Positions 4,837 to 43,389 of a DNA stretch of 43,498 nucleotides are shown piece by piece. Location: the NCBI GenBank assembly GCA_035290045.1, contig DATDVH010000021.1, positions 1-43,498 of the forward strand, given 5' to 3'. The notes below the pieces were generated by a model, which saw only the letters and a program-made list of their open reading frames with translations, searched no databases and was not told the origin of the DNA. Both the position numbers and the translations under genes were made by a program. This DNA is from Patescibacteria group bacterium. Lineage in GTDB: Bacteria; Patescibacteriota; Microgenomatia; UBA1406; HO2-37-13b. Positions within the stretch are counted from its first letter, which is position 1. Each line of letters opens with the position of its first letter.

Positions 4837-6155
4837 AAACTCTATTTTTCAAAAAAGACGCTCTTACTGCAATTCCTTCCGAAACAGGAGTGTATTTTTT
4901 TCTCAAGAAAGACATTCCTCTTTATATCGGAAAAGCACTCAACCTGAGAGCTCGTATTGCCTCGCATGTGCGAAGCAGCGAACTTGACCAAAAAGAAAAA
5001 CAAATAATCAGTCAAACAGATAGAATAAAAATCATCACGATTTCCTCGGAATTTAATGCGCTCATGTATGAGGCTGAACTGATCAAACAGTATAAGCCAA
5101 AATATAACATCATCTTAAAGGACGGAAAAACATCTTTATATATCAAAATTACAGAGAGCAAAACCTATCCTAAAATTTTTCCAGTCAGATATGAAAATGA
5201 AAGAGGCTCTCAGTATTTTGGACCGTTTCAGTCGCATCAGATAGTAATGAAAGTCCTCAGGGAAATCAGACACATCGTCCCATTTTGTTCACAAAAAAAG
5301 ATGACAAAACGCGGCTGTTTTTACTCAAAAATCGGTTTATGCAATCCATGTCCCAATACTATTTCTCACATACAAGATAAAGAGGTGAAAAAAAAGGCTG
5401 CCAAGGAGTACAAAAAACAAATACGAATAATTCGTCTGATTTTGCAGGGAAAATCTGATATTGTCCTCCGATCACTGACACGACGAATGGCAGAAAAAAG
5501 TAGAGTCAATAATTATGAAGACGCATTGAGCATACGAGATACAATCACTTTTTTTAGGAAACTGATTGCTGAAAGATCCTTTCACGAAAATGTCGAAAAG
5601 TATACGGTTGGTTTCCCTATTGAACAGTTAATATGTGAATTTAATACATTTATGAAAAATTATTTTGGGCAATCACACGAACGCGATACATATACCACTG
5701 AATGTTATGATATATCGCATTTGTTTGGAAGTCATGCGACCGCATCCATGGTTGTTTTTCATGACGGACAACCATATAAAAAAAAATATAGACGATTTCG
5801 TATACAGACAGTACGCCATATCTCAGATGTTGACATGATAAAGGAAGTGATAGACAGAAGATTAAAAAGAAAAGAGTGGAAACTTCCAGATATTATTGTT
5901 GTTGATGGAGGGAAACCTCAACTTATTGCGGTTACGCAGACACTAACCTTTCATCAATTATCTATCCCTTGTATAGGATTTGCCAAAAGCCCCGATCGAA
6001 TCATTGTCTCAAACCCTCCACAAACCATCTATTTATCCGAAAATTCAGCACTTCTTTTGCTTTTTAAGTATATAAGAGATGAATCTCATCGTTTTGCAAA
6101 AAAGTATCATACGTTATTAAGAAACAAAAACTTTTTTACTACAAATAAGGTATAA
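4833..6155 (+). CDS. uvrC: Excinuclease ABC subunit C, short form without C-terminal (HhH)2
   Basis: 440 aa. GIY-YIG N-terminus (GVYFFLKKDIPLYIGKALNLRARIASH), a UVR-like helix pair (NNYEDALSIRDTI) and an Endo-V/RNase H-like domain (ECYDISHLFG...VVDGGKPQL). The ORF ends before any HhH region. Confidence 0.85.
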   Translation: MKTLFFKKDALTAIPSETGVYFFLKKDIPLYIGKALNLRARIASHVRSSELDQKEKQIISQTDRIKIITISSEFNALMYEAELIKQYKPKYNIILKDGKTSLYIKITESKTYPKIFPVRYENERGSQYFGPFQSHQIVMKVLREIRHIVPFCSQKKMTKRGCFYSKIGLCNPCPNTISHIQDKEVKKKAAKEYKKQIRIIRLILQGKSDIVLRSLTRRMAEKSRVNNYEDALSIRDTITFFRKLIAERSFHENVEKYTVGFPIEQLICEFNTFMKNYFGQSHERDTYTTECYDISHLFGSHATASMVVFHDGQPYKKKYRRFRIQTVRHISDVDMIKEVIDRRLKRKEWKLPDIIVVDGGKPQLIAVTQTLTFHQLSIPCIGFAKSPDRIIVSNPPQTIYLSENSALLLLFKYIRDESHRFAKKYHTLLRNKNFFTTNKV

Positions 6156-6165
6156 TATTCCATCT

Positions 6166-6564
6166 ATGAAAAGAATTATAAGAGGAATAATTTTTTCAGC
6201 GCTTAGTTTGTATCTGACTTCATTAGTTATACGGGGGTTTAGCATTCGGTATGACCTAAAACCATTTCTTCTCGCAACTCTTATATTAGCGGTCGTCTAT
6301 TACCTTATAGTTCCTCTTTCCAAGCTTATATTGCTTCCCCTCAATATTCTGACTCTTGGACTTGTTTCAGTTGTTGTATATATTTTTTTATTTAATTATG
6401 TTATTCACTATTTTGGATTCATATCAATCCATTCATGGACTTTTGAGGGGTTTACATTCTCAGGTCTTGTGATTCCAAAAATACAGTTAAATTATCTTTC
6501 TACTCTTATTTCCTCAGCATTGCTTTATTCCACCATTATAAATGTGTTTGAATTAGTCATATGA
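6166..6564 (+). CDS. Small 4-TM membrane protein, phage-holin-family-4/DUF360-like
   Basis: 132 aa and very hydrophobic. LPLNILTLGLVSVVVY resembles the LPltilTlGlf motif of Phage_holin_4_2. Confidence 0.5.
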   Translation: MKRIIRGIIFSALSLYLTSLVIRGFSIRYDLKPFLLATLILAVVYYLIVPLSKLILLPLNILTLGLVSVVVYIFLFNYVIHYFGFISIHSWTFEGFTFSGLVIPKIQLNYLSTLISSALLYSTIINVFELVI

Positions 6565-8128: not shown

Positions 8129-8244
8129 TATAATTACAATATTAAAAATAAAATATAAAAAATAAAAAAATATCAAGACATAGTAGGTTATAGTGACAAA
8201 AGTGGAATTTTTTTATCTTTGATTTTTTATATTTAATTTTTTGA

Positions 8245-8328
8245 GCCGCGGTGGTGGAATGGCAGACACGCAGGACTTAAAATCCTGTGATTTCAAAAAT
8301 CGTGAGGGTTCGACTCCCTCCCGCGGCA
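8245..8328 (+). tRNA. tRNA-Leu(UAA), class II with long variable arm
   Basis: Hand-folded cloverleaf. Acceptor gccgcgg/ccgcggc, anticodon stem cagga/tcctg, loop cTTAAaa, variable hairpin gatt/aatc, T arm gaggg-ttcgact-ccctc. No encoded CCA. Confidence 0.9.
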
Positions 8329-8357
8329 CCGCTTCCCTTACTCCCGCATCAGTAATT

Positions 8358-8366
8358 TGATATAAT
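8358..8366 (+). promoter_or_regulatory. Extended -10 element (TGaTATAAT) upstream of the tRNA-Thr cluster
   Basis: tttGATATAAT lies about 55 nt upstream of the tRNA 5' end. The weak -35 is TTACTC, 17 nt upstream. Confidence 0.4.
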
Positions 8367-8420
8367 GTCTTATATAAAGAGTATTTATATTTTATTTTTT
8401 ATATTTAATTTTTCATTTTA

Positions 8421-8664
8421 GCCGAGGTAGCTCAGTGGCAGAGCAACTGTTTTGTCCCAGAAGCAGTTAGCTAAATTTGATAAAATTTAGCGTAACGCTT
8501 CGGGATCCCGTACATTTACGCTTTTGCCTGCTTAGCTCAGCGGTAGAGCAGCTGTTTTGTAAACAGCAGGTCGTCAGTTCGAGCCTGACAGCAGGCTCAA
8601 AAAGCAAAAGCTAAATAGTACTGGGATAAACAGTAGGTCGGGGGTTCAATTCCTCTCCTCGGCT
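8421..8664 (+). tRNA. tRNA-Thr(UGU)-like gene split in the anticodon loop by a ~172-nt structured insert (8455-8626)
   Basis: The 5' half gccgagg-ta-gctc-agtggca-gagc-a-actgt-tttg and the 3' half taa-acagt-aggtc-ggggg-ttcaatt-cctct-cctcggc-t join into a canonical 72-nt cloverleaf with loop tTTGTaa. The insert ends pair (tcccag/ctggga). Confidence 0.6.
8526..8597 (+). tRNA. tRNA-Thr(UGU), intact, lying inside the insert of the outer tRNA
   Basis: gcctgct-ta-gctc-agcggta-gagc-a-gctgt-tTTGTaa-acagc-aggtc-gtcag-ttcgagc-ctgac-agcaggc-t. This is a perfect 72-nt cloverleaf. Confidence 0.9.
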
Positions 8665-8746
8665 CAAAACAGTCATGAGTTTTGAGTCATCTAACTTATT
8701 GTTTATTACGTTTCAAGATTAATGACTAAAGTCTAACGATTAATTT

Positions 8747-8819
8747 GCGCTTGTAGCTCAACGGATAGAGCAATTCCCTTCTAAGGAATAGGTTGAGCGT
8801 TCGATTCGCTCCAAGCGCA
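8747..8819 (+). tRNA. tRNA-Arg(UCU)
   Basis: gcgcttg/caagcgc acceptor, anticodon stem attcc/ggaat, loop cTTCTaa, T arm gagcg-ttcgatt-cgctc. Confidence 0.9.
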
Positions 8820-8931
8820 CAAAAATACCGTAGGTCTATTTCACCTCGTAGGTGAAATAAATATAACCTCGGGAAAATGTGCACATAACATTTTACCCAT
8901 GAGGTGGGATATGTGAAGTATTATCTCAATT

Positions 8932-10223: not shown

Positions 10224-13288
<3,065 letters not shown>

Positions 13289-13364
13289 ATCAAAACTTAA
13301 TCCGTTATACACGGATTTTACTATGCTTACTCCTACCTTTGAAAAACCAAATTGTCAAAGTGCG

Positions 13365-13438
13365 TGGACTTGAGGAGAGTTGAACTCCTAACCTCCCGGA
13401 TGCAAACCGGGTGCTCTGGCCAGTTGAGCTACAAGCCC
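13365..13438 (-). tRNA. tRNA-Ala(UGC)
   Basis: The reverse complement folds as gggcttg-ta-gctc-aactggcca-gagc-a-cccgg-tTTGCat-ccggg-aggtt-aggag-ttcaact-ctcct-caagtcc-a. The G3:U70 identity pair is present. Confidence 0.9.
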
Positions 13439-20058: not shown

Positions 20059-22284
20059 TTATTTAAAAACTAAATCATACCAATTATCAAATGAATTATT
20101 TTTATATTCTTTCTTTGTTTTATTAAAATAAATCCATCTTCCACGATAGTTTCTGTCAGTATTCATGACTAATCCTCCTAAAAGATTTTTACCTGTTTTG
20201 TTATTTTCAAGAATGTATTTATATAATCCGTCTGCTTTTGACGCAAAATCGTTTAAGTATGATCCATGCGGATCAAACAATCCAATTCTTCCATTTTTAA
20301 GTTTCACTATAAAATCAACATAAAAAGGTTTTGTTTCTCCATGATGATAGGGAATGGCAAAAAATGTTGCGTCTCGATCTCCATTTTTAAACCACCATTC
20401 AACTGATTCTGACTTCTCCAAATAGGAAATAAAAGCGGTCTCATGTTTATTGTTCTGATTACTAAAAAAAGGAGACATAATTGACTTCTGAACATTTACT
20501 TTCTTATAGTTATTGTCATACACTAAGATATCTGGAATATTCCAATTTTCTTTTATCATTATTTCAGTCTCACGTTTTACGACATCGGATTTATATTCTT
20601 CTTTTGCCCTATTTAAGACTTCTTTGATATGTTCTGAATTTCCTTCTGATAATACTATCTGAATAATGTCATTCTCGCTTTCACACCACTCATAACCAAA
20701 ACTGTTATAGAAAAACGTATAGATTGATTCTTTTGCTCTTCCGACTGATCTATCTTCAGGATAAAACGGGGTTAAATTATTCCTCACAAAAAAGTCAAAA
20801 GATCTCTGCAAATCAAAATTGCTAAATTTTATTTCTCTATCGCCTACAATTGATACTCCAATTAAGGCATCTATGTCGTGAGATTTATAGTCAGAAATAA
20901 TACTGCTATTAATTTTCTTATCACTTCTGTCTATCAGATTCTTCAAGTCATACCGTTTCGCTTGATTCAAAAATATATCGGTAAATAACGGAGAAAGTCT
21001 TGTTTTTTCACGATGTCTTTTTGGATAGTAGGAACGTAAATTAATAGGCATATAATTAGCACGAATCTTGCTGGGATACATGCTGATATAATTTTTTGCC
21101 ATATCCTCTTTAATATTTATGTTATCTATATTTGTGTACACATAACCATAGTTAAGTATTTCATTTTCATAATATCCTTTTTCAGGTTCAGGCATTCTCA
21201 TAATTCGTCCAACTGTCTGTATTGAAAAAATAGCAGAATGCCACTCTCTAAACAAAACTAAAATTTGCGCTCTTGGACAATCCCACCCTAAAGCAATCGC
21301 TTGCTTGAAAATCAGCACTTCAACATCGCTATCGTGTCTCTCAATATCGTCTTTATTTATATGCTCGCCAGATAACCAAATAGCCAATTTGTTATTTCCC
21401 TTTTGAGTTGTGATCGCATATTTATGTTTCAAAATACTTTCTATTCGGTCTCTTATCCTATCCTCTACACTTGTTTTTCTATCAGGTAATTGAATTAAAA
21501 TCAAAGGATTTATCTCAATTTTTCCTTTTTTATAACTATCAACTAATTCTTGTCGTTTTTGTATCGCCACGTCTATAACTAATTCTTCGGTTCCTCCGCT
21601 CAATTTTTGTGTCCGGATTTTCCCGTGTTTTATAAAGTTTTCAAAATCATCATTGAGGATAACTGCTTTCTTAATCATTCCTTCTTTTTTAACATCTTCT
21701 AACTGGACAGATACTTTCTCATCTTCATCGTTAATTGTTGCAGGAGTAGCAGTCACTTCAATGGTGATTTTTGGTCCAATCATTTGAATGAGATCGTGCG
21801 ATATTTCACTGCTGGCATGATGATGCGCTTCATCAATGATCAAAACTATCTTTCGCCCTTCTTCTTTTGTTCGTTCTAATACCTTTGATAGATTAAATTC
21901 TTGCTCGTTATCGCGTATATAAATGTTATCCGTTTTATTAATGCTTTCCCAATTGAAAAATAAAATCTCATTTTCACTTATTTTCCTATCTTCCAAATCT
22001 TCAAAATAACAACATTTGCACGCTTGACTTATCTCAAAATAATTTTCTAATTTTTTATAACTTTGTTCATGTAGTTTCCTTGGAGCTGTCCAGATAAAAC
22101 AAAGAGGTTGCTTAACGTCTTCGCCATCAATCAATTGTTTCAAAAACTCCGCCATCATTATGGTTTTACCCGATCCCGTCGGTGCTTTAAAAACCATTTT
22201 TTTATCACCCGAATAACCCAGGAGCTTCTTTGTTTTTTCTAACAAACTATCTATCGCTTTTTCCTGATAAATTTTCAGTTGCAT
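20059..22284 (-). CDS. res: Type III restriction enzyme Res subunit (SF2 helicase plus C-terminal PD-(D/E)xK-like domain with a non-canonical motif)
   Basis: 741 aa. Motif I is KAPTGSGKT and motif II is IIDEAHH. The C-terminus FAIPYHHGETKPFYVDFIVKLKNGRIGLFDPHG aligns with the PDF...ExKG nuclease motif, but with VD and DPH. Confidence 0.85.
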   Translation of the reverse strand: MQLKIYQEKAIDSLLEKTKKLLGYSGDKKMVFKAPTGSGKTIMMAEFLKQLIDGEDVKQPLCFIWTAPRKLHEQSYKKLENYFEISQACKCCYFEDLEDRKISENEILFFNWESINKTDNIYIRDNEQEFNLSKVLERTKEEGRKIVLIIDEAHHHASSEISHDLIQMIGPKITIEVTATPATINDEDEKVSVQLEDVKKEGMIKKAVILNDDFENFIKHGKIRTQKLSGGTEELVIDVAIQKRQELVDSYKKGKIEINPLILIQLPDRKTSVEDRIRDRIESILKHKYAITTQKGNNKLAIWLSGEHINKDDIERHDSDVEVLIFKQAIALGWDCPRAQILVLFREWHSAIFSIQTVGRIMRMPEPEKGYYENEILNYGYVYTNIDNINIKEDMAKNYISMYPSKIRANYMPINLRSYYPKRHREKTRLSPLFTDIFLNQAKRYDLKNLIDRSDKKINSSIISDYKSHDIDALIGVSIVGDREIKFSNFDLQRSFDFFVRNNLTPFYPEDRSVGRAKESIYTFFYNSFGYEWCESENDIIQIVLSEGNSEHIKEVLNRAKEEYKSDVVKRETEIMIKENWNIPDILVYDNNYKKVNVQKSIMSPFFSNQNNKHETAFISYLEKSESVEWWFKNGDRDATFFAIPYHHGETKPFYVDFIVKLKNGRIGLFDPHGSYLNDFASKADGLYKYILENNKTGKNLLGGLVMNTDRNYRGRWIYFNKTKKEYKNNSFDNWYDLVFK

Positions 22285-22288
22285 ACAG

Positions 22289-23008
22289 CTATTTATTTTG
22301 CTGAACTTCTTTATATTTATTTTTTGCTATACTAACGATGTCTTTAAGTTGAGTTATAGAATCGTACATAAACTCTGGTTCTACTATAAAATATTTTACT
22401 TTATCTACCTTTACCGACAGCTTTTTCTTTAAGAAGTTCAAAGCCTTGTCTTTTTTTTTAGTTATAGGACAGACAATGTCTGCTTTATCATTAGTAATAA
22501 GTATTGTAAACCTACCATTTTCTTTTAAGCTATTGCGTAATTGCCTTCCTATGATAAGTAAGTCACTGTATCTTTCCAAAATAGCTAAAATATCTTCCTC
22601 GTAATCATATGATTTTTTTCCTTTATTTACTAAACTTTCGATAAAATTACAAAAATTTATAGACGCGTTTGGAATCCCATTACGGACTTTTGAAAAACCT
22701 AATGGATTTTTTAGTAAAAAAATTAACAGAAAAATTTTATCGAACACTTGACGTAAAATAAACACGTAACACTTGAAGTATAAATTCAACTTAACATCAG
22801 TATATATGTCTGACAACTTTTCCATATAAAAAGATGGAATTGGTAAATTTAGTTCTTGAAATTCTTGTTTTCTACCGTTAATTTTTTTTTCTAATCTATA
22901 AGAAAACAGCATGCTTAATTCCTTAAGTTCTTCAAAAAATATATCAAGAACGAGAAAACATTCATTAATATTATTTTGTATTTGTGGTAAATGTATTTTT
23001 ATCTCCAT
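22289..23008 (-). CDS. Hypothetical protein X, wedged between mod and res of cassette 1
   Basis: 239-aa ORF with 4-nt gaps to both neighbours on the same strand. I recognise no family motif, only a partial RQLRNSLKEN segment without His. Confidence 0.75.
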   Translation of the reverse strand: MEIKIHLPQIQNNINECFLVLDIFFEELKELSMLFSYRLEKKINGRKQEFQELNLPIPSFYMEKLSDIYTDVKLNLYFKCYVFILRQVFDKIFLLIFLLKNPLGFSKVRNGIPNASINFCNFIESLVNKGKKSYDYEEDILAILERYSDLLIIGRQLRNSLKENGRFTILITNDKADIVCPITKKKDKALNFLKKKLSVKVDKVKYFIVEPEFMYDSITQLKDIVSIAKNKYKEVQQNK

Positions 23009-23012
23009 ACTT

Positions 23013-24683
23013 TCATTTAAAAATCCTCCTATATACCCTTAAAATAGCTTCGGGAATAGGGGATAATTTAATTTTGTGTTTAACATCTTCAAATTCTTCA
23101 TCAAAAGTTTCATCGCCCAATGAAAAAATATATATATTGATTTTTCCTGTTATATCTTTGATTACTTTTTTAAAGTTCTGTATTGCCTTCGTATGCCAAA
23201 TGATACCGGTATGATGAGAGGCGTTTTTGAAGAGCTTAAAATCTTTTTTATCACATACTGGCTCAAATGTGCCTTCCTTTATGCAAAGCATCTCCGTTGC
23301 TTCTGTAGTAAGTTTGATTTTATTTTCATCTGTCGGTTCCTTATAATTCACAAAGTCTGTTTTGAAATATTTTATATTACCGCCTAATCCAGCTACTTGT
23401 TTTCCTTTCACATTTTTGTATCCTTCTATGACTTTTTTAATTCTTGGATAGCAAATATCTTCAGCGATTTTATATCCATTCCCATTATTATTTTCGTTAT
23501 TGGTACATAAAATAAATTTTCGGTTGCCATTATCTTCTTTATTAAGTTCAAGCACTGCATGTCCTGTTGTTCCTGATCCAGCCATAAAATCAAGGATTAT
23601 TGAGTTTTCTTTTGAGGATAGTTGTACTAAATGTTTAATTAAGGAAATTGGTTTTGGGTAATCAAAAATTCTATTATCAAATAAAGCATCAAGTTTTTTT
23701 TGTGCATCTCGTGTAGTTTCAACATTATCAATAATGTTTGTTGGTATCTGTTCATCTATATCATCTGGGAATATTTTTATACGAGGAACCGATTGATATT
23801 TTGGAGGAATTCCAAAAAATATTTTTTTTTGATTTATTAACTCTGTCATTTCTTCTTTTGATCGTTGCCATTGTCTTTTCCAAGTAATTCCTGACGGCGA
23901 TTTAATCTCAAAATAATTGAGATGATGTTTGTTCGACCTTTCTTCTGAAAATGAAATGCTTCCAGAAAACCAACTCCCGCGAGTATCATTATCTGGATTT
24001 TGGAATTCATAATTAACATAATTTAATATTGACCAAGAAGATAGATTATTTTTATTTTTTGCATAGCATAAAATATATTGTTGAAGTGTACGACTCCACC
24101 TATCTTTTTTTCCTTTGCCATGTAACCACATAAAGTTTTGGACAAAATTTTCTTCACCAAACAATCCTTTATTTTTATCGTCCATCAACAGCTTTAATTG
24201 CGCCATTTCGTTGTCATCAATTGAGATAAAAATTACTCCTGTATCTTTTAACAAGTTTTTGGCAAGTTTTAGTCTTTTTTCCATGAATGAAAGCCACTTT
24301 GAATGACGATAGCCATCTTCTTTATCAACAAATCTGTCGTTGAAAATAAAATCTTTGTTGCCTGTGTTATACGGAGGATCAATGTAGATGACATCAACTT
24401 TTTTCGCATGAGTATAATTTAAAACTGAAAGTGCGTGATAATTATCTCCTTCAATCAGTAAATTCATTGGTTTATTTTTATCAGTGATTATTTCTTTATT
24501 TTTTACCTCCTTTAATACCGGTAGTTTTTTCTTGCACATGTCAATCACTTCTTCTGGTTTTTCTTCCCATACAAGACCATATTTTTTCTTTTTTTTTAAT
24601 TCTTTCTTCAACCGACTAACTTCTATTTTTAAGATTTCAATTTCTGAATTATTGTCTGTATATTTCATACTTTTAGTTAACAT
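23013..24683 (-). CDS. mod: Type III R-M Mod subunit (beta-class N6A/N4C DNA methyltransferase)
   Basis: 556 aa. Motif IV (VIYIDPPYNTG) precedes motif I (ILDFMAGSGTTGHAV), which is beta-class order. There is an N-terminal coiled coil, and res is adjacent. Confidence 0.9.
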   Translation of the reverse strand: MLTKSMKYTDNNSEIEILKIEVSRLKKELKKKKKYGLVWEEKPEEVIDMCKKKLPVLKEVKNKEIITDKNKPMNLLIEGDNYHALSVLNYTHAKKVDVIYIDPPYNTGNKDFIFNDRFVDKEDGYRHSKWLSFMEKRLKLAKNLLKDTGVIFISIDDNEMAQLKLLMDDKNKGLFGEENFVQNFMWLHGKGKKDRWSRTLQQYILCYAKNKNNLSSWSILNYVNYEFQNPDNDTRGSWFSGSISFSEERSNKHHLNYFEIKSPSGITWKRQWQRSKEEMTELINQKKIFFGIPPKYQSVPRIKIFPDDIDEQIPTNIIDNVETTRDAQKKLDALFDNRIFDYPKPISLIKHLVQLSSKENSIILDFMAGSGTTGHAVLELNKEDNGNRKFILCTNNENNNGNGYKIAEDICYPRIKKVIEGYKNVKGKQVAGLGGNIKYFKTDFVNYKEPTDENKIKLTTEATEMLCIKEGTFEPVCDKKDFKLFKNASHHTGIIWHTKAIQNFKKVIKDITGKINIYIFSLGDETFDEEFEDVKHKIKLSPIPEAILRVYRRIFK

Positions 24684-37177: not shown

Positions 37178-39880
37178 TCATACATTATTGGCAAACAAAC
37201 TCTCTAACTCCGCAAAATTCCTTAACTTATTTTTCTCAAATTCTTCCTGTTTTATATAGAGCATTTTATATGAAATGCTTTTTTGCGCTTTGTTTATATC
37301 ATCACTCCACTGCTTTAATCTTTCAATTTTCAAAACATCGTTAATATCTTCTCGTCCTTTTGTTTCAATAATAAATATTTCCTTTTCAGAAACCTTCACG
37401 ATAAAATCAGGATAAAAATTGGATAGTATTCCTTCTGCATTTTTATAATCAATCTTAAAATTCACTGCAAGGTAATTTTTTGCAAATGAAATAATATCGT
37501 CGCACCGTTCCAAAAAAGTAGCAAAATCAAGTTCAAAATGATTATCACCTACTATCTTATTGAATATACTTTTTTTAGGATGAGCTATATATGGCTTATC
37601 TCTCAACACAATTGGACGTGTATCGCTGATTTTAAGATAGTTTATGATCTGCGCTTCTCCCCTATCACGTATAGTGAGATCATTTATCGCAGTCTTAAAG
37701 GTCTCCATGATTATACGCACCACTTCAAACTCAGAAAGATTTCGTAAAATGTTCGCATCTTCCAGATCAACAGATTTTTCAAAAGGATATTCCTTGATAA
37801 ACTCCTTCACCTTTCCATATAAAATATCATATCCGCCAACGAGACGAAGCTCATTTTTTATCGTTTGTGCAAAATAACCAATCGCCGAATGATAATTGCT
37901 GGAAGGTGAAGTATCCAAAACTGTTGCATGATGAATGGTTTTATCAGAACCTGCTTTATTTACAACATACTGAAAGATAATTTCACGTTTTTCTCTTTCT
38001 GAAAATTGTTGTATTGGCATTTTCTTTGTTTCAAATTGAGAAGGGCGCAGTTCTGAAAGATTTTTATATTCTCTATATACACGCGGCGATAGTATGGGAA
38101 GTTCAATATCAAGTTGTTCTATATCTTTTTTTTTATTTTCAAAATCAACCTCAACCACTAAAGGAGCTATTGGTTTGTATCCTTCGCCCATTTTTCTTCG
38201 CTCAAGTGCTACTCCCTCACTTTTTACAGATTCTACAAAATTCATAAACGCATCAGTGCCGACGACGCTGACATATTCTTCTATATCCTTTCCAAAATAC
38301 ATGCGCCGAAGTCCTCTCCCTAAGGTTTGTTCTGGCAAAATATTACTCTGTGCAGAGTAGGGACGAAGTCCCACAATCGTTGTCACATTTTTCACATCCC
38401 ACCCCTCCTTCAACATCAGCACAGATACAATAGCTTTATAGCGGCTATCCCATGAGTCAATACGATGCGCTTCTTTTCGTAATTTTTCAAGTTCCTCCTT
38501 TTTCTTTCCTGTTGATGCCTCATATATATCTCCATTATTTTTTGTGTGAATAATAAGCACAGCATTTTTCAACTTTGGATACCTGCTTTCAAGATAACTC
38601 GCCACATCATCGCAGTTTTTGGTGTCATCAGTCATCACAAAAAGAATTGCTTTATTCGTATGTTTATGCTCCTCATATACTTTCTCCCATTCTAAATAAC
38701 CAAGATTGATAAAGTCTCCATATCGCTCGGTAAATTTACTGCTCTTTTTCTCCTCAAGTCTGGCGTGGCTGGCAGAATCGGGAATAACCGGGTGTTTGAC
38801 TACATTCTGATAAATTGCCTCAACAAGAGGATAGTCTGCGACAGTCTGCACAAAAATAGAGCCGTCGTTATGTTTGGGCGTTGCTGTTACATCAATCTGA
38901 AGCGCAAGTTCTGATCCTTTTTGTTTGAGATTATTATGAATATCCTGTATAGACTGAAACCATGCAAGCCGTTCGTCGTGGATATGATGCGCTTCGTCAT
39001 TCAACACTACAAGTTCGTCAATATCGCGCACAATATCGCTTACCTGTATCTTTGATTCATGTGTCTTGCCTGTTGGTTTTTTTCCTAAAAAATAATCTGT
39101 AGTATTTTCATCGCTAAGATTTGGTTCTGTTTCTCGCCCACTATATACTCTATGAATATTCGTAAGGAAAATATTACCAGTTTTGCGAAACGATCCTACA
39201 TCATCTTGCAGGTGAACAGTGAGTTGAAAATCATCTTTCCAATTTTTACCTTCATAACCATTATCCGGAAGCACCGGATCTTGATAAAAGATTTTTAAGC
39301 CGTCAAAATCCGCACGAATGCGGTCAAGTACAATAATATTGGGAGTGATAATGAGAAAGTTGCGCGCCAATGTTGAATTACTCTCATAAAGTTTGTGAAA
39401 ATAGCACCATGCAAGGATGAGGCTTAATACTTTTGTCTTGCCGCTTCCCGTCGCCATCTTTATCACAAATCGCCGCCAATCCTCTGGGAACATGCCGGCA
39501 GAAACTGCGCTTGAACTATCAAATCGCATTAGATCGTACTTATCTTTCACGCCAACCACTTCGTACAGATAAATAACCGTTTCAACAGATTCCCTCTGAC
39601 CAAAATAATATTGAAATTGTGCGGTTGCTCCATCAGCTTTTGAAAGTAAATGTTCGTGATTGAACCACCAGTCAAGAAGCGCTTTACTCGTATCTGTGGC
39701 GCCTTCATATTTTTTATTCCTCCATTCTTGCACTCTTTTTCTCAAAATCGCAACAAGCGGAGGAAGAAGCTTTTCATATCCTTGACTACGCAATTCCTCA
39801 TCAGCCGGAAACCAGCGATATTCTGGATCAGCTATCTCGTATGGTGATTTTGGAAATTTAGGATGTAATGCCATAGACAA
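37178..39880 (-). CDS. res: Type III(-like) restriction enzyme Res subunit (SF2 helicase plus canonical PD-ExK nuclease)
   Basis: 900 aa. Motif I is MATGSGKTK and motif II is LNDEAHH. The C-terminus is NFYPDFIVKVSEKEIFIIETKGRED. Confidence 0.85.
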   Translation of the reverse strand: MSMALHPKFPKSPYEIADPEYRWFPADEELRSQGYEKLLPPLVAILRKRVQEWRNKKYEGATDTSKALLDWWFNHEHLLSKADGATAQFQYYFGQRESVETVIYLYEVVGVKDKYDLMRFDSSSAVSAGMFPEDWRRFVIKMATGSGKTKVLSLILAWCYFHKLYESNSTLARNFLIITPNIIVLDRIRADFDGLKIFYQDPVLPDNGYEGKNWKDDFQLTVHLQDDVGSFRKTGNIFLTNIHRVYSGRETEPNLSDENTTDYFLGKKPTGKTHESKIQVSDIVRDIDELVVLNDEAHHIHDERLAWFQSIQDIHNNLKQKGSELALQIDVTATPKHNDGSIFVQTVADYPLVEAIYQNVVKHPVIPDSASHARLEEKKSSKFTERYGDFINLGYLEWEKVYEEHKHTNKAILFVMTDDTKNCDDVASYLESRYPKLKNAVLIIHTKNNGDIYEASTGKKKEELEKLRKEAHRIDSWDSRYKAIVSVLMLKEGWDVKNVTTIVGLRPYSAQSNILPEQTLGRGLRRMYFGKDIEEYVSVVGTDAFMNFVESVKSEGVALERRKMGEGYKPIAPLVVEVDFENKKKDIEQLDIELPILSPRVYREYKNLSELRPSQFETKKMPIQQFSEREKREIIFQYVVNKAGSDKTIHHATVLDTSPSSNYHSAIGYFAQTIKNELRLVGGYDILYGKVKEFIKEYPFEKSVDLEDANILRNLSEFEVVRIIMETFKTAINDLTIRDRGEAQIINYLKISDTRPIVLRDKPYIAHPKKSIFNKIVGDNHFELDFATFLERCDDIISFAKNYLAVNFKIDYKNAEGILSNFYPDFIVKVSEKEIFIIETKGREDINDVLKIERLKQWSDDINKAQKSISYKMLYIKQEEFEKNKLRNFAELESLFANNV

Positions 39881-39961
39881 TTAAATTATTTCATGTCATT
39901 TTCTGATTGATTTTTCAAAATCAAATGTATACAATATCTATTGATCGAAAGATCAATAACT

Positions 39962-40432
39962 CTAGAGCTTGGGGACTCTTTCATCGTAATCCCTTTTGCT
40001 AATGCGCAAAATACTGCATAATATCAGTTTGAAATCATCAAATAACTTTTTAACCTCAATTATCAACTTATCCATTTGTTTGTCTGCTACTGAATCGACC
40101 ATATTGTGAACAATTTTTATTCTGTAATGGTTAATTTTCTTCAAAATTTCTATGAGTTCTTCTTTATAGTTAAAATTTACTCTTTTAAGAGTACTAATTT
40201 TTCCACCTAATGGCTGTTTAATAAATTTGTTTTCATCTATACTTAATGGAATTAGTTTTACTATAGATACTAAAAAATATTCCACAAGATTAAAATAAAG
40301 CAAAGATGAGGCTGTCCTGTTAGGTAAATTATTCCTTCCATACATTAAATCCGATAGGTGCATTATTCGTATAGCAGTATGATTTTTAAAAATATCTTTA
40401 TCTGATATTTCTTTATATTTTGTGATATTCAT
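39962..40432 (-). CDS. Small alpha-helical protein with an Rx4H motif (HEPN/DUF4145-like candidate), wedged between mod and res of cassette 2
   Basis: 156 aa. Its ATG overlaps the mod2 stop by 4 nt. It carries ...[22 protein letters not shown] (R104-x4-H109), placed near the C-terminal third as in HEPN domains. The confidence value refers to the ORF; the functional call rates about 0.35. Confidence 0.75.
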
Positions 40433-42513
40433 ATATTCACCTCAATAACTTTCATCGTATCATTCCCAAAAATATCAACCACTTTCACTGCTATTTTGCG
40501 CCTGCCTTTTTCACATTCATGAAAAATGCTTTTCAGTTCAAGACTGCGGTTTTTCTTGGTACGGAAAGATTGCCACTCATTTTCAAAAATATAGTCCCCA
40601 GTCCACATCTCTTTATACTTTCCATCGCCTTTTGGCACTTTGATGATCTCTTTTTTGCTCTCAAAGTCAAAATCCACTGCCCAATAATCTATCCAATCAG
40701 TCCATTTTTTAGTAAGCACTTCGCGGGAGACAATGCCGTTTTTATCTTTGATGACTTTTACGATTTGTCCGTTATCCACAGTTACTTTTGCGTAGCCGTT
40801 TTTTATCTCTGTAACTATATTGTCAATTTTATCTTGACTATAGTGGACTGAAAAATCAGTCAGTTCAATCGCTACCGATTTATTCGTGATATATGGCTTG
40901 ACTTCAATATACGCCACATCATGAAATACCACTTGGTTTTTCTCTATTGCGCGCTTATCAAAGACATCTTTCGGAATGTATTTGAGCAGAATATCAACAC
41001 CTTTTTCCTTGGCGCTGTCAAGAATATGAGGAAAAAGTCCCATCTCAAATTCAAACGCAAGTATATCAACCTTTGTGAAATGTTTTTCTCTACATTCACT
41101 TATCACTTCTTCTATGAAAAGTCGGGATGCGGGCAAGTTAATTGGTCCAACAATAACCACTCGCGAAGACTTTTTGCCATGCACCGTCTGAAAGCCAACT
41201 ATTTTTTCCGCTTGATACGCTTTGAGAATAAGCTCCACAAAATCGTTATTTTTCTGTGCTATTTGTTTTTCTTTTTCTTCATCTTGAAGCTCTTGATTTA
41301 CTCCGATATAATGCTCTACTTCGTATTTGCCAAGATTGAGTATCTCAAACGCGCGATAATCACTGCTTTCTTTCTTCATCTTTCTTTGGACTTCAATCAT
41401 GCGTTTCCGTATCGTATGAATAGCAAACTTGCCAAGGTCCGACCCGATCCATTTCCGACCAAGTTTCTCTGCGACTGCCAAAGTAGTGCCTGAGCCGCAG
41501 AAAAAATCAGCGACAATATCATTTTCATTTGATGATGCTTGAATAATCCGTTCAAGAAGCGCTTCTGGTTTTTGCGTTGGATAGCCAACTACTTCATTTC
41601 GTTGCCTGTCTGCTGTGTAAACGTCACTCCACCAATCCTCCAGTCTCTTTCCTTGTTCTTCTAGTTGGGCAACTCTTTCAGCCGAATCCTCCGATTCTTT
41701 ACCGAGAAACGCACCTCTGTTGTGTATACCTGATTTATGTTCAACTCTTGGGGTGTTAAAAATATTTGTCTCTCCTTTTGAGTAAAAGAATATCGAATCA
41801 TGTTTGCGAGTGAATGCACTGTTGTTCTTTCCCGGTCCGCTATAACACCACGCAATTTCATTTCTGAAATTATCTTTCCCAAAAACTTCACTCAAAACCA
41901 AACGCATATAACTATTTACCCGATAATCACAATGTACATAAATACTGCCATCGTCGGCGAGTAGATCACGCATCAGAGATAACCTTTCATAGATCATCGC
42001 GATAAAACTATCCGCGCCCTTGCCCCAGGTATCGCGATATGCCAACTCTTCCAAAACTGTTGGTTCTTTGGTGAAGGTCTCATCGCCGATTACAATATCC
42101 ATAGAAAAATCAGCTCCCACATCAAATGGAGGGTCTATGTAAATCAGCTTTATACCGCCCATTTTTTCTATCTCTTCACGAAGCGGTCCATTTTTCAGAC
42201 TTGAAAGGATCAGTTTGTTATCGCCCCAGATCAGTTTATTCGTCCAACCCTTCAACTGCCGGCCGCGCGTATCATAACTAAAAAGACCAAGTTGCGCATG
42301 TGAGTCTTCAACCTTTTCTGCTCGCGGTTCGTCAATATGCTCAATGGTCTGAAAGGGAAGCACGACCTTCGTCACTTCATGTGTCTTACCGTTCCATACA
42401 AGCTCCACTTCCTTCTTATCTTCAAAAAGAAGAAAACGATATTTGTCTGGTATCTCTTTCTCTGCATCAATTAGTTTTATAACATCTCGTTTTTCATTGT
42501 CAGAAAGTTTCAT
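40429..42513 (-). CDS. mod: Type III(-like) R-M Mod subunit (beta-class DNA methyltransferase)
   Basis: 694 aa. Motif IV ([11 protein letters not shown]) precedes motif I ([26 protein letters not shown]). Confidence 0.9.
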
Positions 42514-42650: not shown

Positions 42651-42719
42651 ACAAGTAAATCCTCAACCGTGGGGTTCCGGATGGTTCCTCGTAAACAGCG
42701 GTTGAGGTTTTGTTTTTTT
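42651..42719 (+). ncRNA. Candidate small RNA B (extended -10 TGtTATAAT at 42636-42644; 9-bp stem plus U-run terminator)
   Basis: Stem cctcaaccg (42661-42669) / cggttgagg (42699-42707), followed by ttttgttttttt. The loop region contains GGGGTTCCGG. It shares ttCACAAG(a/t)AAA and GGGTTCCG with module A. Confidence 0.3.
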
Positions 42720-43389
42720 AGGAAAATAGAGGATTTTCTTCAATAACTCTTTTTTTTATGAGATTATAATAACTTTTATCATTGTACTCATATTTGCGAA
42801 AAATTGACCAACTCACAAAATCAACTACTTGTAGTGATTGCTCTTCAGTTGGATATTTAATAGCAATTTTAATCAAAGATCTATGGTTTGTTTTTACTTG
42901 TTCTTCTAAATAATGAGTAAAATTTTTATTTAAAAACTTGTTTGTTTCAAGCCTTGCCGCCACAAGTATAATGGGGATTGACGTATTCAAAATCTTCCTT
43001 GTCATAATCCTATCAAGTAAAATATTGGTAACGTAATTGTAAAGAATATGCTTTTCATCTTGAAGACGAGTATATACTTTTGATTTGTTAAGAAAGATCG
43101 TCATGATGTTGCAATTGCTTCTTGCCAATAGCTTTAATAACCTTTTACGCGTATATGGTTTTTCTTTATAACAATGAAGTACGCCACCACTCAATTTTTT
43201 TATTTTTTTTATTAGCGATTGATGAACTTTTTTGACAATCTTCTCCAACGGTTTCTTATCTATTGCAAAAATTAAAGTAATGATAAAGTACCTAGAACTC
43301 TTTTTCTTTTTGTTAAATCCAAGATCGACTGACTCATCTAAAAAAATATATTGTGACATATCTGGATGTACCAGAAATCTCAAAAACAA
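42718..43389 (-). CDS. DUF3800 family protein
   Basis: The N-terminal YIFLDES.D and the C-terminal LQVVDFVSWSIF are the two DUF3800 signature blocks. The likely true start is M11 (MSQYIFLDES, about 43359). Confidence 0.7.
   Translation of the reverse strand: MFLRFLVHPDMSQYIFLDESVDLGFNKKKKSSRYFIITLIFAIDKKPLEKIVKKVHQSLIKKIKKLSGGVLHCYKEKPYTRKRLLKLLARSNCNIMTIFLNKSKVYTRLQDEKHILYNYVTNILLDRIMTRKILNTSIPIILVAARLETNKFLNKNFTHYLEEQVKTNHRSLIKIAIKYPTEEQSLQVVDFVSWSIFRKYEYNDKSYYNLIKKRVIEENPLFS

Follow-up and report, generated by a model that had tools for sequence, protein, structure and literature searches.

The contig DATDVH010000021.1 of a Patescibacteria group bacterium (43,498 nucleotides (nt), hereafter the window) carries a tRNA-Thr(UGU) gene whose two parts, E1 and E2, are separated within the anticodon loop by an insert that itself contains a complete second tRNA-Thr(UGU) gene, so that an outer gene is wrapped around an inner one of the same kind. 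Comparison with similar nests elsewhere suggests that the insert is probably a small, non-autonomous, hairpin-bounded cassette, which inserts exactly in the anticodon loop of a cognate tRNA gene and replaces this resident gene, leaving it to decay. The features of the locus are listed below by window position.

8421-8454, + strand: E1, the 5' part (nt 1-35) of the outer tRNA-Thr(UGU), 34 nt, GCCGAGGTAGCTCAGTGGCAGAGCAACTGTTTTG, 3' end ...CUGUUUUG
8455-8626, + strand: the whole insert between E1 and E2, 172 nt
8455-8505, + strand: hairpin A (UCCCAG...CGGGA), 51 nt; covariance model R1, 67.3 bits, E = 3.8e-13
8478-8486, + strand: extended -10-like motif TGATAAAAT at the apex of hairpin A, likely promoter of the inner tRNA
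8506-8525, + strand: leader, the left arm of helix B (UCCCGUACAUUUACGCUUUU), pairing with the trailer
8526-8597, + strand: inner tRNA-Thr(UGU), the presumed functional gene (ARAGORN; Rfam tRNA 68.3 bits)
8598-8626, + strand: trailer, the right arm of helix B (...GCAAAAGCUAAAUAGUACUGGGA), an inexact reverse complement of the leader followed by G1-C2 of the inner tRNA
8627-8664, + strand: E2, the 3' part (nt 36-73) of the outer tRNA-Thr(UGU), 38 nt, TAAACAGTAGGTCGGGGGTTCAATTCCTCTCCTCGGCT
8454 to 8627, + strand: E1-E2 junction, …GCAACUGUUUUG joined to UAAACAGUAGGUCGGGGG…, also written …AGCAACTGTTTTG joined to TAAACAGTAGGTCGGGGG…
8358-8366, + strand: TGATATAAT, upstream of the outer gene and a candidate promoter of the extended -10 type
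8245-8330, + strand: tRNA-Leu(UAA), upstream neighbour (tRNA/Rfam calls)
8747-8820, + strand: tRNA-Arg(UCU), downstream neighbour (tRNA/Rfam calls)

The nested locus

Joined in silico, E1 and E2 are called by ARAGORN as a tRNA-Thr(UGU) with 21 stem pairs, no mismatches, two G-U pairs, and normal D and T loops. The nest had been described in an earlier note made from the letters alone, and its coordinates and sequences proved correct, including the flawless outer cloverleaf, the length of the insert, and the complete second tRNA-Thr(UGU) recognised by both ARAGORN and Rfam. The split point lies between G35 and U36, and is fixed by relatives (L010, L013; compared loci are cited by L-numbers) that lack the T ambiguity. 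ARAGORN run with its intron option (-i200) misses the window's outer gene, because the program expects introns at 37/38.

The inner tRNA forms a complete cloverleaf with the conserved D- and T-loop residues, is kept in relatives, and is 96% identical to the standalone tRNA-Thr(UGU) of relatives with the same Leu-Thr-Arg context; the Leu-Thr-Arg cluster is compact and nest-free in relatives. An outer gene of the window's type (…CCTCTCCTCGGCT) is found in L031/L065, where it is heavily disrupted. The nested region folds far more strongly than shuffled sequence (z = -8.1). Upstream, the reading of TGATATAAT as a promoter from its sequence is tentative, because 54 nt separate the motif from E1. 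An AT-rich string of 16-17 nt (TTTTATATTTAATTTTT) is repeated at 8226-8241 and 8397-8413, its copies sitting just upstream of tRNA-Leu(UAA) and of the outer tRNA-Thr; the repeat may represent a promoter or UP-like element common to both genes, or a flank that was duplicated.

Architecture of the cassette

Cassettes of the window's type have a common layout, in which hairpin A (YCCCAG...CGGGR, ~50 nt) is directly followed by helix B, comprising a leader (UCCCG at its start), the inner tRNA, and a trailer (CUGGGA at its end); hairpin A and helix B both start with YCCC, end with GGGR, and have complementary arms of ~20 nt. Over 31 homologues, the pairing of hairpin A is kept in 91% of cells against 78% in shuffles, with double-sided changes in 15 of its 20 pairs, values that none of 500 shuffles reached; slid controls were just 24-53% paired, and RNAalifold agrees with hairpin A. 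The arm duplex of the window's hairpin A amounts to -25.2 kcal/mol. In helix B of the window, the leader together with the first nt of the inner tRNA pairs with the trailer at -24.2 kcal/mol (z = -6.0 against shuffled trailers), and leader:trailer pairing holds in all 31 of 31 cassettes, averaging -24.3 kcal/mol with a z of about -6 relative to shuffled trailers.

Both the 9-bp hairpin at 8470-8491 and the leader/trailer pairing singled out in the earlier note are present, as is the complementarity that it gave for the tcccag and ctggga ends of the insert. Covariation backs hairpin A at 8455-8505 plus helix B, and not the 6-bp terminal helix alone; changes specific to single loci (UCGC/GUGA in L009; UCCCGCAC/GUGCGGGA in L012) favour helix B over a simple terminal helix. 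The arms of hairpin A and helix B are complementary to each other as well, A-left to B-right and A-right to B-left (z about -3.8 in both cases), and asymmetric bulges indicate that helix B may be a copy of hairpin A in reverse orientation, with a tRNA in its loop. In L061 (1100-1214), the hairpin A model weakly matches an entire B domain on the opposite strand, the tRNA being read as an insertion in the loop. Another arm family (CCTGCCCG...GCAGGCGGG) is used equivalently in L010 and, in reversed form, in tRNA-Trp nests.

The motif TGnTA[AGT]AAT occurs in 24 of 42 cassettes, invariably 33-43 nt upstream of the inner tRNA, against a background of 0.016 per 80 nt, and TATAAT or TAGAAT is found at the hairpin A apex in several further cassettes. 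Ordinary tRNA genes in these loci have TGnTAnAAT 7-12 nt upstream in 16 of 170 cases, about eight times background (0.016 per 80 nt scaled to 60 nt). A sigma-70 two-hexamer scan, from which the extended -10 motif was analysed separately, gave no + strand promoter. The cassette thus likely brings its own promoter in the apex of hairpin A, as judged from motif position and enrichment.

Model R1, applied to 775 kb, finds ~55 hairpin A sites, nearly all directly upstream of a cassette tRNA, the exceptions being marginal matches near E = 0.05-0.1; no clear copy of hairpin A was found outside tRNA cassettes in the 775 kb scanned. R1 finds one hairpin A in the window, at 8455-8505, and a search of the window for YCCC...GGGR hairpins otherwise returned ordinary rRNA helices and random matches.

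Recurrence across genomes and metagenomes

A scan of one genome per GTDB species with a gapped pattern (three anticodon-arm pieces at the right spacing) returned 10 loci, nine of which are the same nest in diverse Patescibacteria; record titles of these nine genomes include Levybacteria, Berkelbacteria and Paceibacteria, and two are metagenome-assembled genomes (MAGs) labelled Gammaproteobacteria, labels that we suspect to result from mis-binning. The tenth match, L014 316-620 in a Kingella MAG, was rejected as a chance match to an unrelated tandem repeat containing an anticodon-arm-like motif. The L014 array has repeats of roughly 57 nt (by eye), every one with AAACTGTTTTGTAAACAGGG. A second pattern, anchored on the leader start (TCCCG) and the inner gene, matched at least 117 distinct loci in Joint Genome Institute (JGI) metagenomes; among the 117 distinct matches listed, 62 have cassette features and 55 are ordinary standalone tRNA-Thr genes. 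A scan of viral contigs gave two ordinary tRNA-Thr genes and no cassette, and therefore no sign of a phage vector.

Because it recurs in more than 60 independent assemblies, the nest is neither chance nor mis-assembly, and the mis-assembly that the earlier note had named as a refutation is ruled out by the same recurrence. The idea that two tRNA-Thr reads or contigs were merged, or that the half-tRNA resemblance is fortuitous, draws on the general risk attached to MAGs; the same junctions, arms and order appear in assemblies made in different projects and with different assemblers, accompanied by compensatory changes particular to lineages, leaving this explanation a negligible probability. 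Full-text literature searching turned up no account of tRNA genes being nested or disrupted in Patescibacteria or the Candidate Phyla Radiation (CPR), and a meeting report covers CPR rRNA introns and archaeal tRNA intron transposition only.

Intact inner genes and decayed outer genes

Where both junctions are present (32 loci), all 32 inner genes are called, their stems fully paired with three G-U pairs in total, and the outer gene, joined between nt 35 and 36, is called in 16, about seven of them with 21 clean pairs; this contrast is somewhat inflated by the metagenome pattern, which demanded an intact inner gene, and the genome-scan loci, free of that selection, follow the same trend. Contig ends explain a few of the outer-gene failures, and the remainder are real lesions. 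E1 ends at G24, without nt 25-35 and hairpin A, in eight loci (L023, L076, L105, L119, L124, L127, L128, L130), which have therefore lost the leading two bases of the anticodon; a shortened E2 is found in L015, L129, L038 and L071; the T loop of the outer gene is destroyed in L016, L030 and L112; and the outer gene of L022 is chimeric, with mismatched E1 and E2 halves. L025 and L046 have an identical helix B and different outer-copy lesions.

Extra small GC-rich hairpins are found in the outer genes at D stem 23/24 (L008, L042/L094, L075, L083, L132), and further extra hairpins in the D loop (L031, L119, L127) and in the variable/T region (L046, L075, L078, L011); removing those of L008 gives a perfect cloverleaf again. 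Compared across loci, the outer gene appears in many genomes as a decaying relic. The cargo-less hairpins interrupting relic genes include CCTGCCCG...GCAGGCGGG, UCCCGGCGCAAGCCGGGA and the motif CTTCGCATAAAGCT.

Exact insertion and serial layering

Within the clade sharing the window's Leu-Thr-Arg context, the same alleles have been found in standalone, outer and inner roles. GCCCACT stands alone in L018 and forms the outer gene of L129 and L061. GCCTGGA stands alone in L040, is the outer gene of L017 and L073, and is the inner gene of L129. GCCTGCT stands alone in L032, L113 and L131, and is the inner gene of the window and of L017. Nests of three to four layers are found in L034, L075, L076 and L130. 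The empty allele of L040, set against the filled one of L017, places the insertion exactly between G35 and T36, with neither duplication nor loss. The same leader/trailer arms are found in outer genes with different anticodon stems at the junction (CTG/CAG, CGG/CCG, ATG/CAT), an argument for cut-and-join at the loop and against homologous co-conversion. Similarity of the inner gene to its own outer gene is 0.74, against 0.735 to foreign outers (permutation p about 0.3), and the notion that inner genes are generally copied from their own outers is rejected on average, though a few loci fit it; inner genes are 0.81 similar among themselves, compared with 0.71 among outers.

Cognate nesting in five tRNA species

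The nests are all cognate and cover five tRNA species, tRNA-Thr(UGU), tRNA-Thr(GGU), tRNA-Thr(CGU), tRNA-Trp and tRNA-Leu(GAG). Those beyond tRNA-Thr(UGU) are located as follows, with a further, decayed Thr(GGU) nest in L023.

L038 ~1290-1620; L046 ~1270-1590; L025 4300-4510 (L025/L081): Thr(GGU) in Thr(GGU)
L066 494-735, reverse strand: Thr(CGU) in Thr(CGU), outer gene perfect
L011 ~1020-1290; L015 ~1420-1640; L025 5470-5760 (L025/L081), + strand: Trp(CCA) in an older Trp(CCA)
L017 ~5950-6380, reverse strand: Leu(GAG) in a degraded Leu(GAG), inserted in the D loop, not the anticodon loop

Some Trp nests carry a second arm family (CCCGCCTGC...GCGGGCAGG); the L025 Trp nest has the arm family of the window, inserted between C34 and C35 rather than between nt 35 and 36. 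An un-invaded version of the L015 outer Trp gene is held by L016. Brute-force deletion scans of the L011 and L015 outer Trp genes were uninformative, because ARAGORN accepts long variable arms. L008 has a left-arm remnant only. Hairpin A of the L038 Thr(GGU) cassette is closely like that of the L045 Thr(UGU) cassette, from which it follows that arms move from host to host, with a cargo that in each case matches the host. All tRNAs in the fetched loci were screened for self-similar flanks (cognate only) and for leader:trailer pairing (identity-blind for cargo); no non-cognate nest was seen in these loci, neither screen being designed to detect a non-cognate host.

The cognate rule could follow either from anticodon-loop-specific insertion in which non-cognate events are lethal, assuming single-copy tRNA genes, or from cargo-dependent targeting. 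The latter would imply a novel type of mobile element with a target set by its tRNA cargo, insertion at the tip of the cognate anticodon hairpin being carried out by the element itself or by an enzyme acting in trans; such an enzyme would use the element's transcript or its folded single strand, and the resident gene would be replaced by a new allele. Cargo targeting would account for cognate nesting in five species and for arms common to Thr(UGU), Thr(GGU), Thr(CGU) and Trp, for the shift of site from 35/36 (Thr) to 34/35 (Trp), and for the finding of no cassette outside tRNA genes; it is put forward tentatively, as an unlikely possibility.

Comparison with known systems

Group I introns occupy the anticodon loops of bacterial tRNA genes (tRNA-Leu UAA, fMet, Ile, Arg); their 5' exon ends in U (the U.G pair in P1), the intron ends in G, and the catalytic core spans P3-P9. 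The cassette is like them in its anticodon-loop insertion in a bacterial tRNA gene and in a patchy distribution suggesting mobility. A group I intron was rejected, as cmscan of 8200-8900 against Rfam 15 at E <= 10 returned tRNA and noise and no intron family, hence no group I core, and as G35 is the last base of the exon and A the last of the intron at the junction fixed by L010 and L013. The ~100 nt left once the tRNA is subtracted are too little for a ribozyme and, unlike in group I systems, the host genes decay here, making splicing doubtful.

The bulge-helix-bulge (BHB) motif has two 3-nt bulges with a 4-bp helix between them, formed from intron nt 2-5 and exon-2 nt 2-5. A BHB intron was likewise rejected: the corresponding CCCA and AAAC cannot pair (by inspection), and the two junctions sit right across from one another at a helix base, not in 3-nt bulges 4 bp apart. 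The earlier note had judged the insert to be neither group I nor BHB, and holds on both counts. To our knowledge, no EndA is known for the bacterial host, and none of RtcB, RNase III and EndA is among the Pfam matches of open reading frames (ORFs) in the 43-kb window. Archaeal tRNA introns of the non-canonical, multiple and transposing kinds, and archaeal split tRNAs, use BHB/EndA (PMC4090602, PMC10714607). Like these, the cassettes and their accompanying hairpins are small structured inserts in the D arm, anticodon loop and T arm, with the same insert type in several tRNA genes and with layered architectures; unlike them, the inserts bring a whole cognate tRNA gene along, and the genes that they interrupt decay. 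In rRNA-type intervening sequences (IVS), RNase III cleaves a long duplex at the insert base and the fragments stay separate; the insert here has a 6-bp terminal helix and ~20-bp arms, and a tRNA cut in this way in its anticodon would be unable to decode.

Among DNA-level systems, phages and integrative and conjugative elements with a tyrosine integrase reportedly (Williams, 2002) target tRNA genes at the anticodon or T loop, bringing a replacement segment of the tRNA. The cassette is like such integrative elements in having a tRNA target, often the anticodon loop, in the keeping of a functional tRNA, and in the displaced piece of the old gene that stays behind. Integrative elements are kilobases long, encode an integrase, carry the 3' part of the tRNA as attP, and produce a chimeric gene at one end while leaving just a 3' fragment; the cassette is 172 nt, non-coding, carries a whole gene with a likely promoter, has no att-type direct repeats, and leaves both halves of the old gene flanking it. 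A tRNA-targeting integrative element was thus rejected, the insert having no ORF, the window no integrase, and the nested gene being complete instead of a duplicated 3' segment. An archaeal example of a tRNA-targeting integrative element has been described (PMC3293823). Dada transposons of eukaryotes insert inside tRNA and small-RNA genes, often around the anticodon loop (PMC8869645). The likeness to Dada lies in insertion inside tRNA genes, with Dada relatives specific for particular tRNA species; Dada elements, however, have a transposase, target duplications of 6-7 bp, many host gene copies and often the opposite orientation, whereas the cassettes are non-coding, make no duplication, share the orientation of the host gene, bring a replacement gene, and enter targets presumed to be single-copy.

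Miniature inverted-repeat transposable elements (MITEs) and small palindromic mobile hairpins include the Rickettsia palindromic elements and the mitochondrial double-hairpin elements and GC clusters. The cassette has terminal inverted repeats, as MITEs do, and is similarly short, non-coding and hairpin-shaped, with a two-hairpin layout and the ability to sit in RNA genes. It differs in the missing target-site duplication (L040 versus L017), in its lack of dispersal (nearly all of the ~55 hairpin A copies in 775 kb belong to tRNA cassettes), and in carrying a gene with a likely promoter. Elements derived from IS200/IS605 insert 3' of a fixed tetra- or pentanucleotide and have asymmetric ends with subterminal hairpins, TnpA acting in trans; the absence of duplication is consistent with these, but the left flanks of the cassettes vary (TTTG, TTGG, TTCG, CTC, AGA) and their ends are symmetric, flush inverted repeats. 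The nested architecture is accordingly rated as categorically new, the nearest known systems each sharing one idea with it and failing the defining features tested.

Mechanism and rival explanations

Comparison among the loci shows the architecture to be conserved, insertion to be exact, the outer gene to decay, nests to be layered and the rule to be cognate; from these patterns, we infer mobility of the cassette at the DNA level. The cassette would enter a resident tRNA-Thr(UGU) gene exactly between its nt 35 and 36, by means of a mobilizing enzyme that the cassette does not encode. The inner gene would then be the working copy, transcribed from the hairpin A promoter and/or the outer promoter, and its tRNA would be released from a leader:trailer-paired precursor by ordinary RNase P and the 3'-end pathway. 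The split outer gene would be a relic of the previous resident, undamaged in the window yet, on the comparative evidence, probably bound to decay and to gather further hairpins; the incoming tRNA gene would present the same target, and the multi-layer loci show that the process repeats and yields serial nests. Of the options raised by the earlier note, the killing of the outer gene by a tRNA-carrying element is the one favoured by outer decay, dead outers, multi-layer nests and the apparent own promoter.

Several observations weigh against replacement by a mobile cassette, beyond the selection for intact inner genes mentioned above. The 172-nt insert has no ORF, and neither transposase, integrase nor homing endonuclease was found in the 43-kb window (Pfam on ORFs) or is known for the element. 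Many outer genes, that of the window included, are still flawless, and some can be restored after several precise extra insertions (L008, L075), like multi-intron spliced genes; the flush termini (YCCC...GGGR) and covarying hairpins could be signals of RNA processing rather than of DNA mobility. Strict cognate nesting is unexplained by simple transposition. Inner and outer copies are near-identical, or have a common upstream flank, in L036, L017 Leu(GAG) and L025 Trp, hinting in these few loci at in-situ duplication or gene conversion rather than import, and the activity of the proposed promoter is a prediction from its motif.

The insert could alternatively be a true RNA intron of a new bacterial kind, one transcript yielding two tRNA-Thr(UGU) molecules after flush cuts (between G35 and U, and between A and U36) at the bases of hairpin A and helix B and religation of the halves; the cutter would be an endonuclease of a new kind, or RNase P acting on hairpin-like substrates, and the smaller hairpins in other outer D and T arms would be further introns of the same system. 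The flawless outer gene of the window, the conserved flush termini with covariation of hairpin A and helix B, the recurrence of small hairpins at positions such as D-stem 23/24 (L008, L042, L075, L083, L132), the cloverleaf restored in L008, and the likeness to multi-intron archaeal tRNA genes are all in its favour. Half of the outer genes are nevertheless uncallable, many without an anticodon or 3' half, while the cassette is still intact; splicing should also permit non-cognate hosts and cargo-less introns in single-copy genes, whereas the self-similarity and leader:trailer screens, neither designed with non-cognate hosts in mind, surfaced cognate nests only. Further, there is neither a BHB motif nor a group I signature, RtcB and EndA are missing from the window (a small sample of the genome at 43 kb), and the cassette seems to own a promoter. 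Such an intron is therefore considered improbable, and the corresponding suggestions of the earlier note, an RNase III/IVS-style excision followed by religation or a split tRNA, and a novel processing pathway, are without support but retain a small probability for the window's outer gene, which is still intact.

An origin in situ, in which template switching or fold-back synthesis at an anticodon-loop break duplicates the gene into itself, so that cassettes are repair scars, would explain the cognate rule directly, the same repair or replication error also creating the flanking inverted repeats; mutual complementarity of the four arms is what fold-back synthesis would be expected to give. Individual loci are in keeping with this: the inner and outer tRNA-Leu(GAG) of L017 have a common acceptor sequence and the same 22-nt upstream flank (AAAGTAGATTTATGAAATGTAT), E1 of L036 and the inner gene differ at a single nt, and E2 of the L025 Trp nest is identical to the inner 3' half across 22 nt. 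Homology of the arms between distant lineages, and between hosts of the Thr(UGU), Thr(GGU), Thr(CGU) and Trp types, however, implies shared ancestry, the same arms occur with different outer types, and inner genes are on average no closer to their own outers than to foreign ones; as a general origin, in-situ duplication is distinctly improbable.

Replacement by a mobile cassette would represent an undescribed form of tRNA gene turnover, in which an essential, presumably single-copy gene is overwritten by a self-contained cassette and nested gene fossils remain, with a wide spread in Patescibacteria, a large and poorly understood share of bacterial diversity. Annotation misses the outer copies and layers, because standard tRNA finders do not report them. 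Cognate targeting points to an insertion machinery guided by structure or cargo, of potential biotechnological interest, or else to non-BHB tRNA splicing in bacteria; nested relics may serve as a natural stratigraphy for dating horizontal exchange of tRNA alleles, and the driver of repeated replacement, for example tRNA-targeting toxins or phages, becomes a question.

Other features of the window

An IVS-like, AT-rich hairpin insertion of ~110 nt, relative to the Rfam model, lies in the helix 25 region of the 23S rRNA gene (- strand, 12575-12705). On the + strand, the two arms of this insertion match the tRNA locus, 12625-12645 the cassette trailer (19/21, E = 0.026) and 12659-12674 the 16 nt directly upstream of E1 (16/16, E = 0.007); a pair of matches within some 110 nt seems more than coincidence, though the stretch is very rich in A and T. 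The likeness between the trailer and a 23S IVS arm suggested in the earlier note is thus real as a match, yet weak, AT-rich and antisense to the 23S rRNA. The 23S rRNA gene (10225-13438) is preceded by tRNA-Ala(UGC) only, with no 16S or 5S in the 43 kb, and the rRNA genes appear to be unlinked.

The gene content of the window includes uvrA, uvrC, an ATP synthase operon, dnaE and gatA/gatB in addition to the 23S rRNA. The closest named homologues of the FTR1 protein adjoining the locus are from Candidatus Roizmanbacteria; FTR1 homologues (~60% identity) were not beside the tRNA cluster, and synteny yielded no sibling loci. Two pairs of ResIII helicase-nuclease and N6/N4 DNA methylase genes, resembling type III restriction-modification systems, are found at 20059-24683 and 37178-42513 (- strand), and a DUF3800 protein is encoded at 42718-43389.

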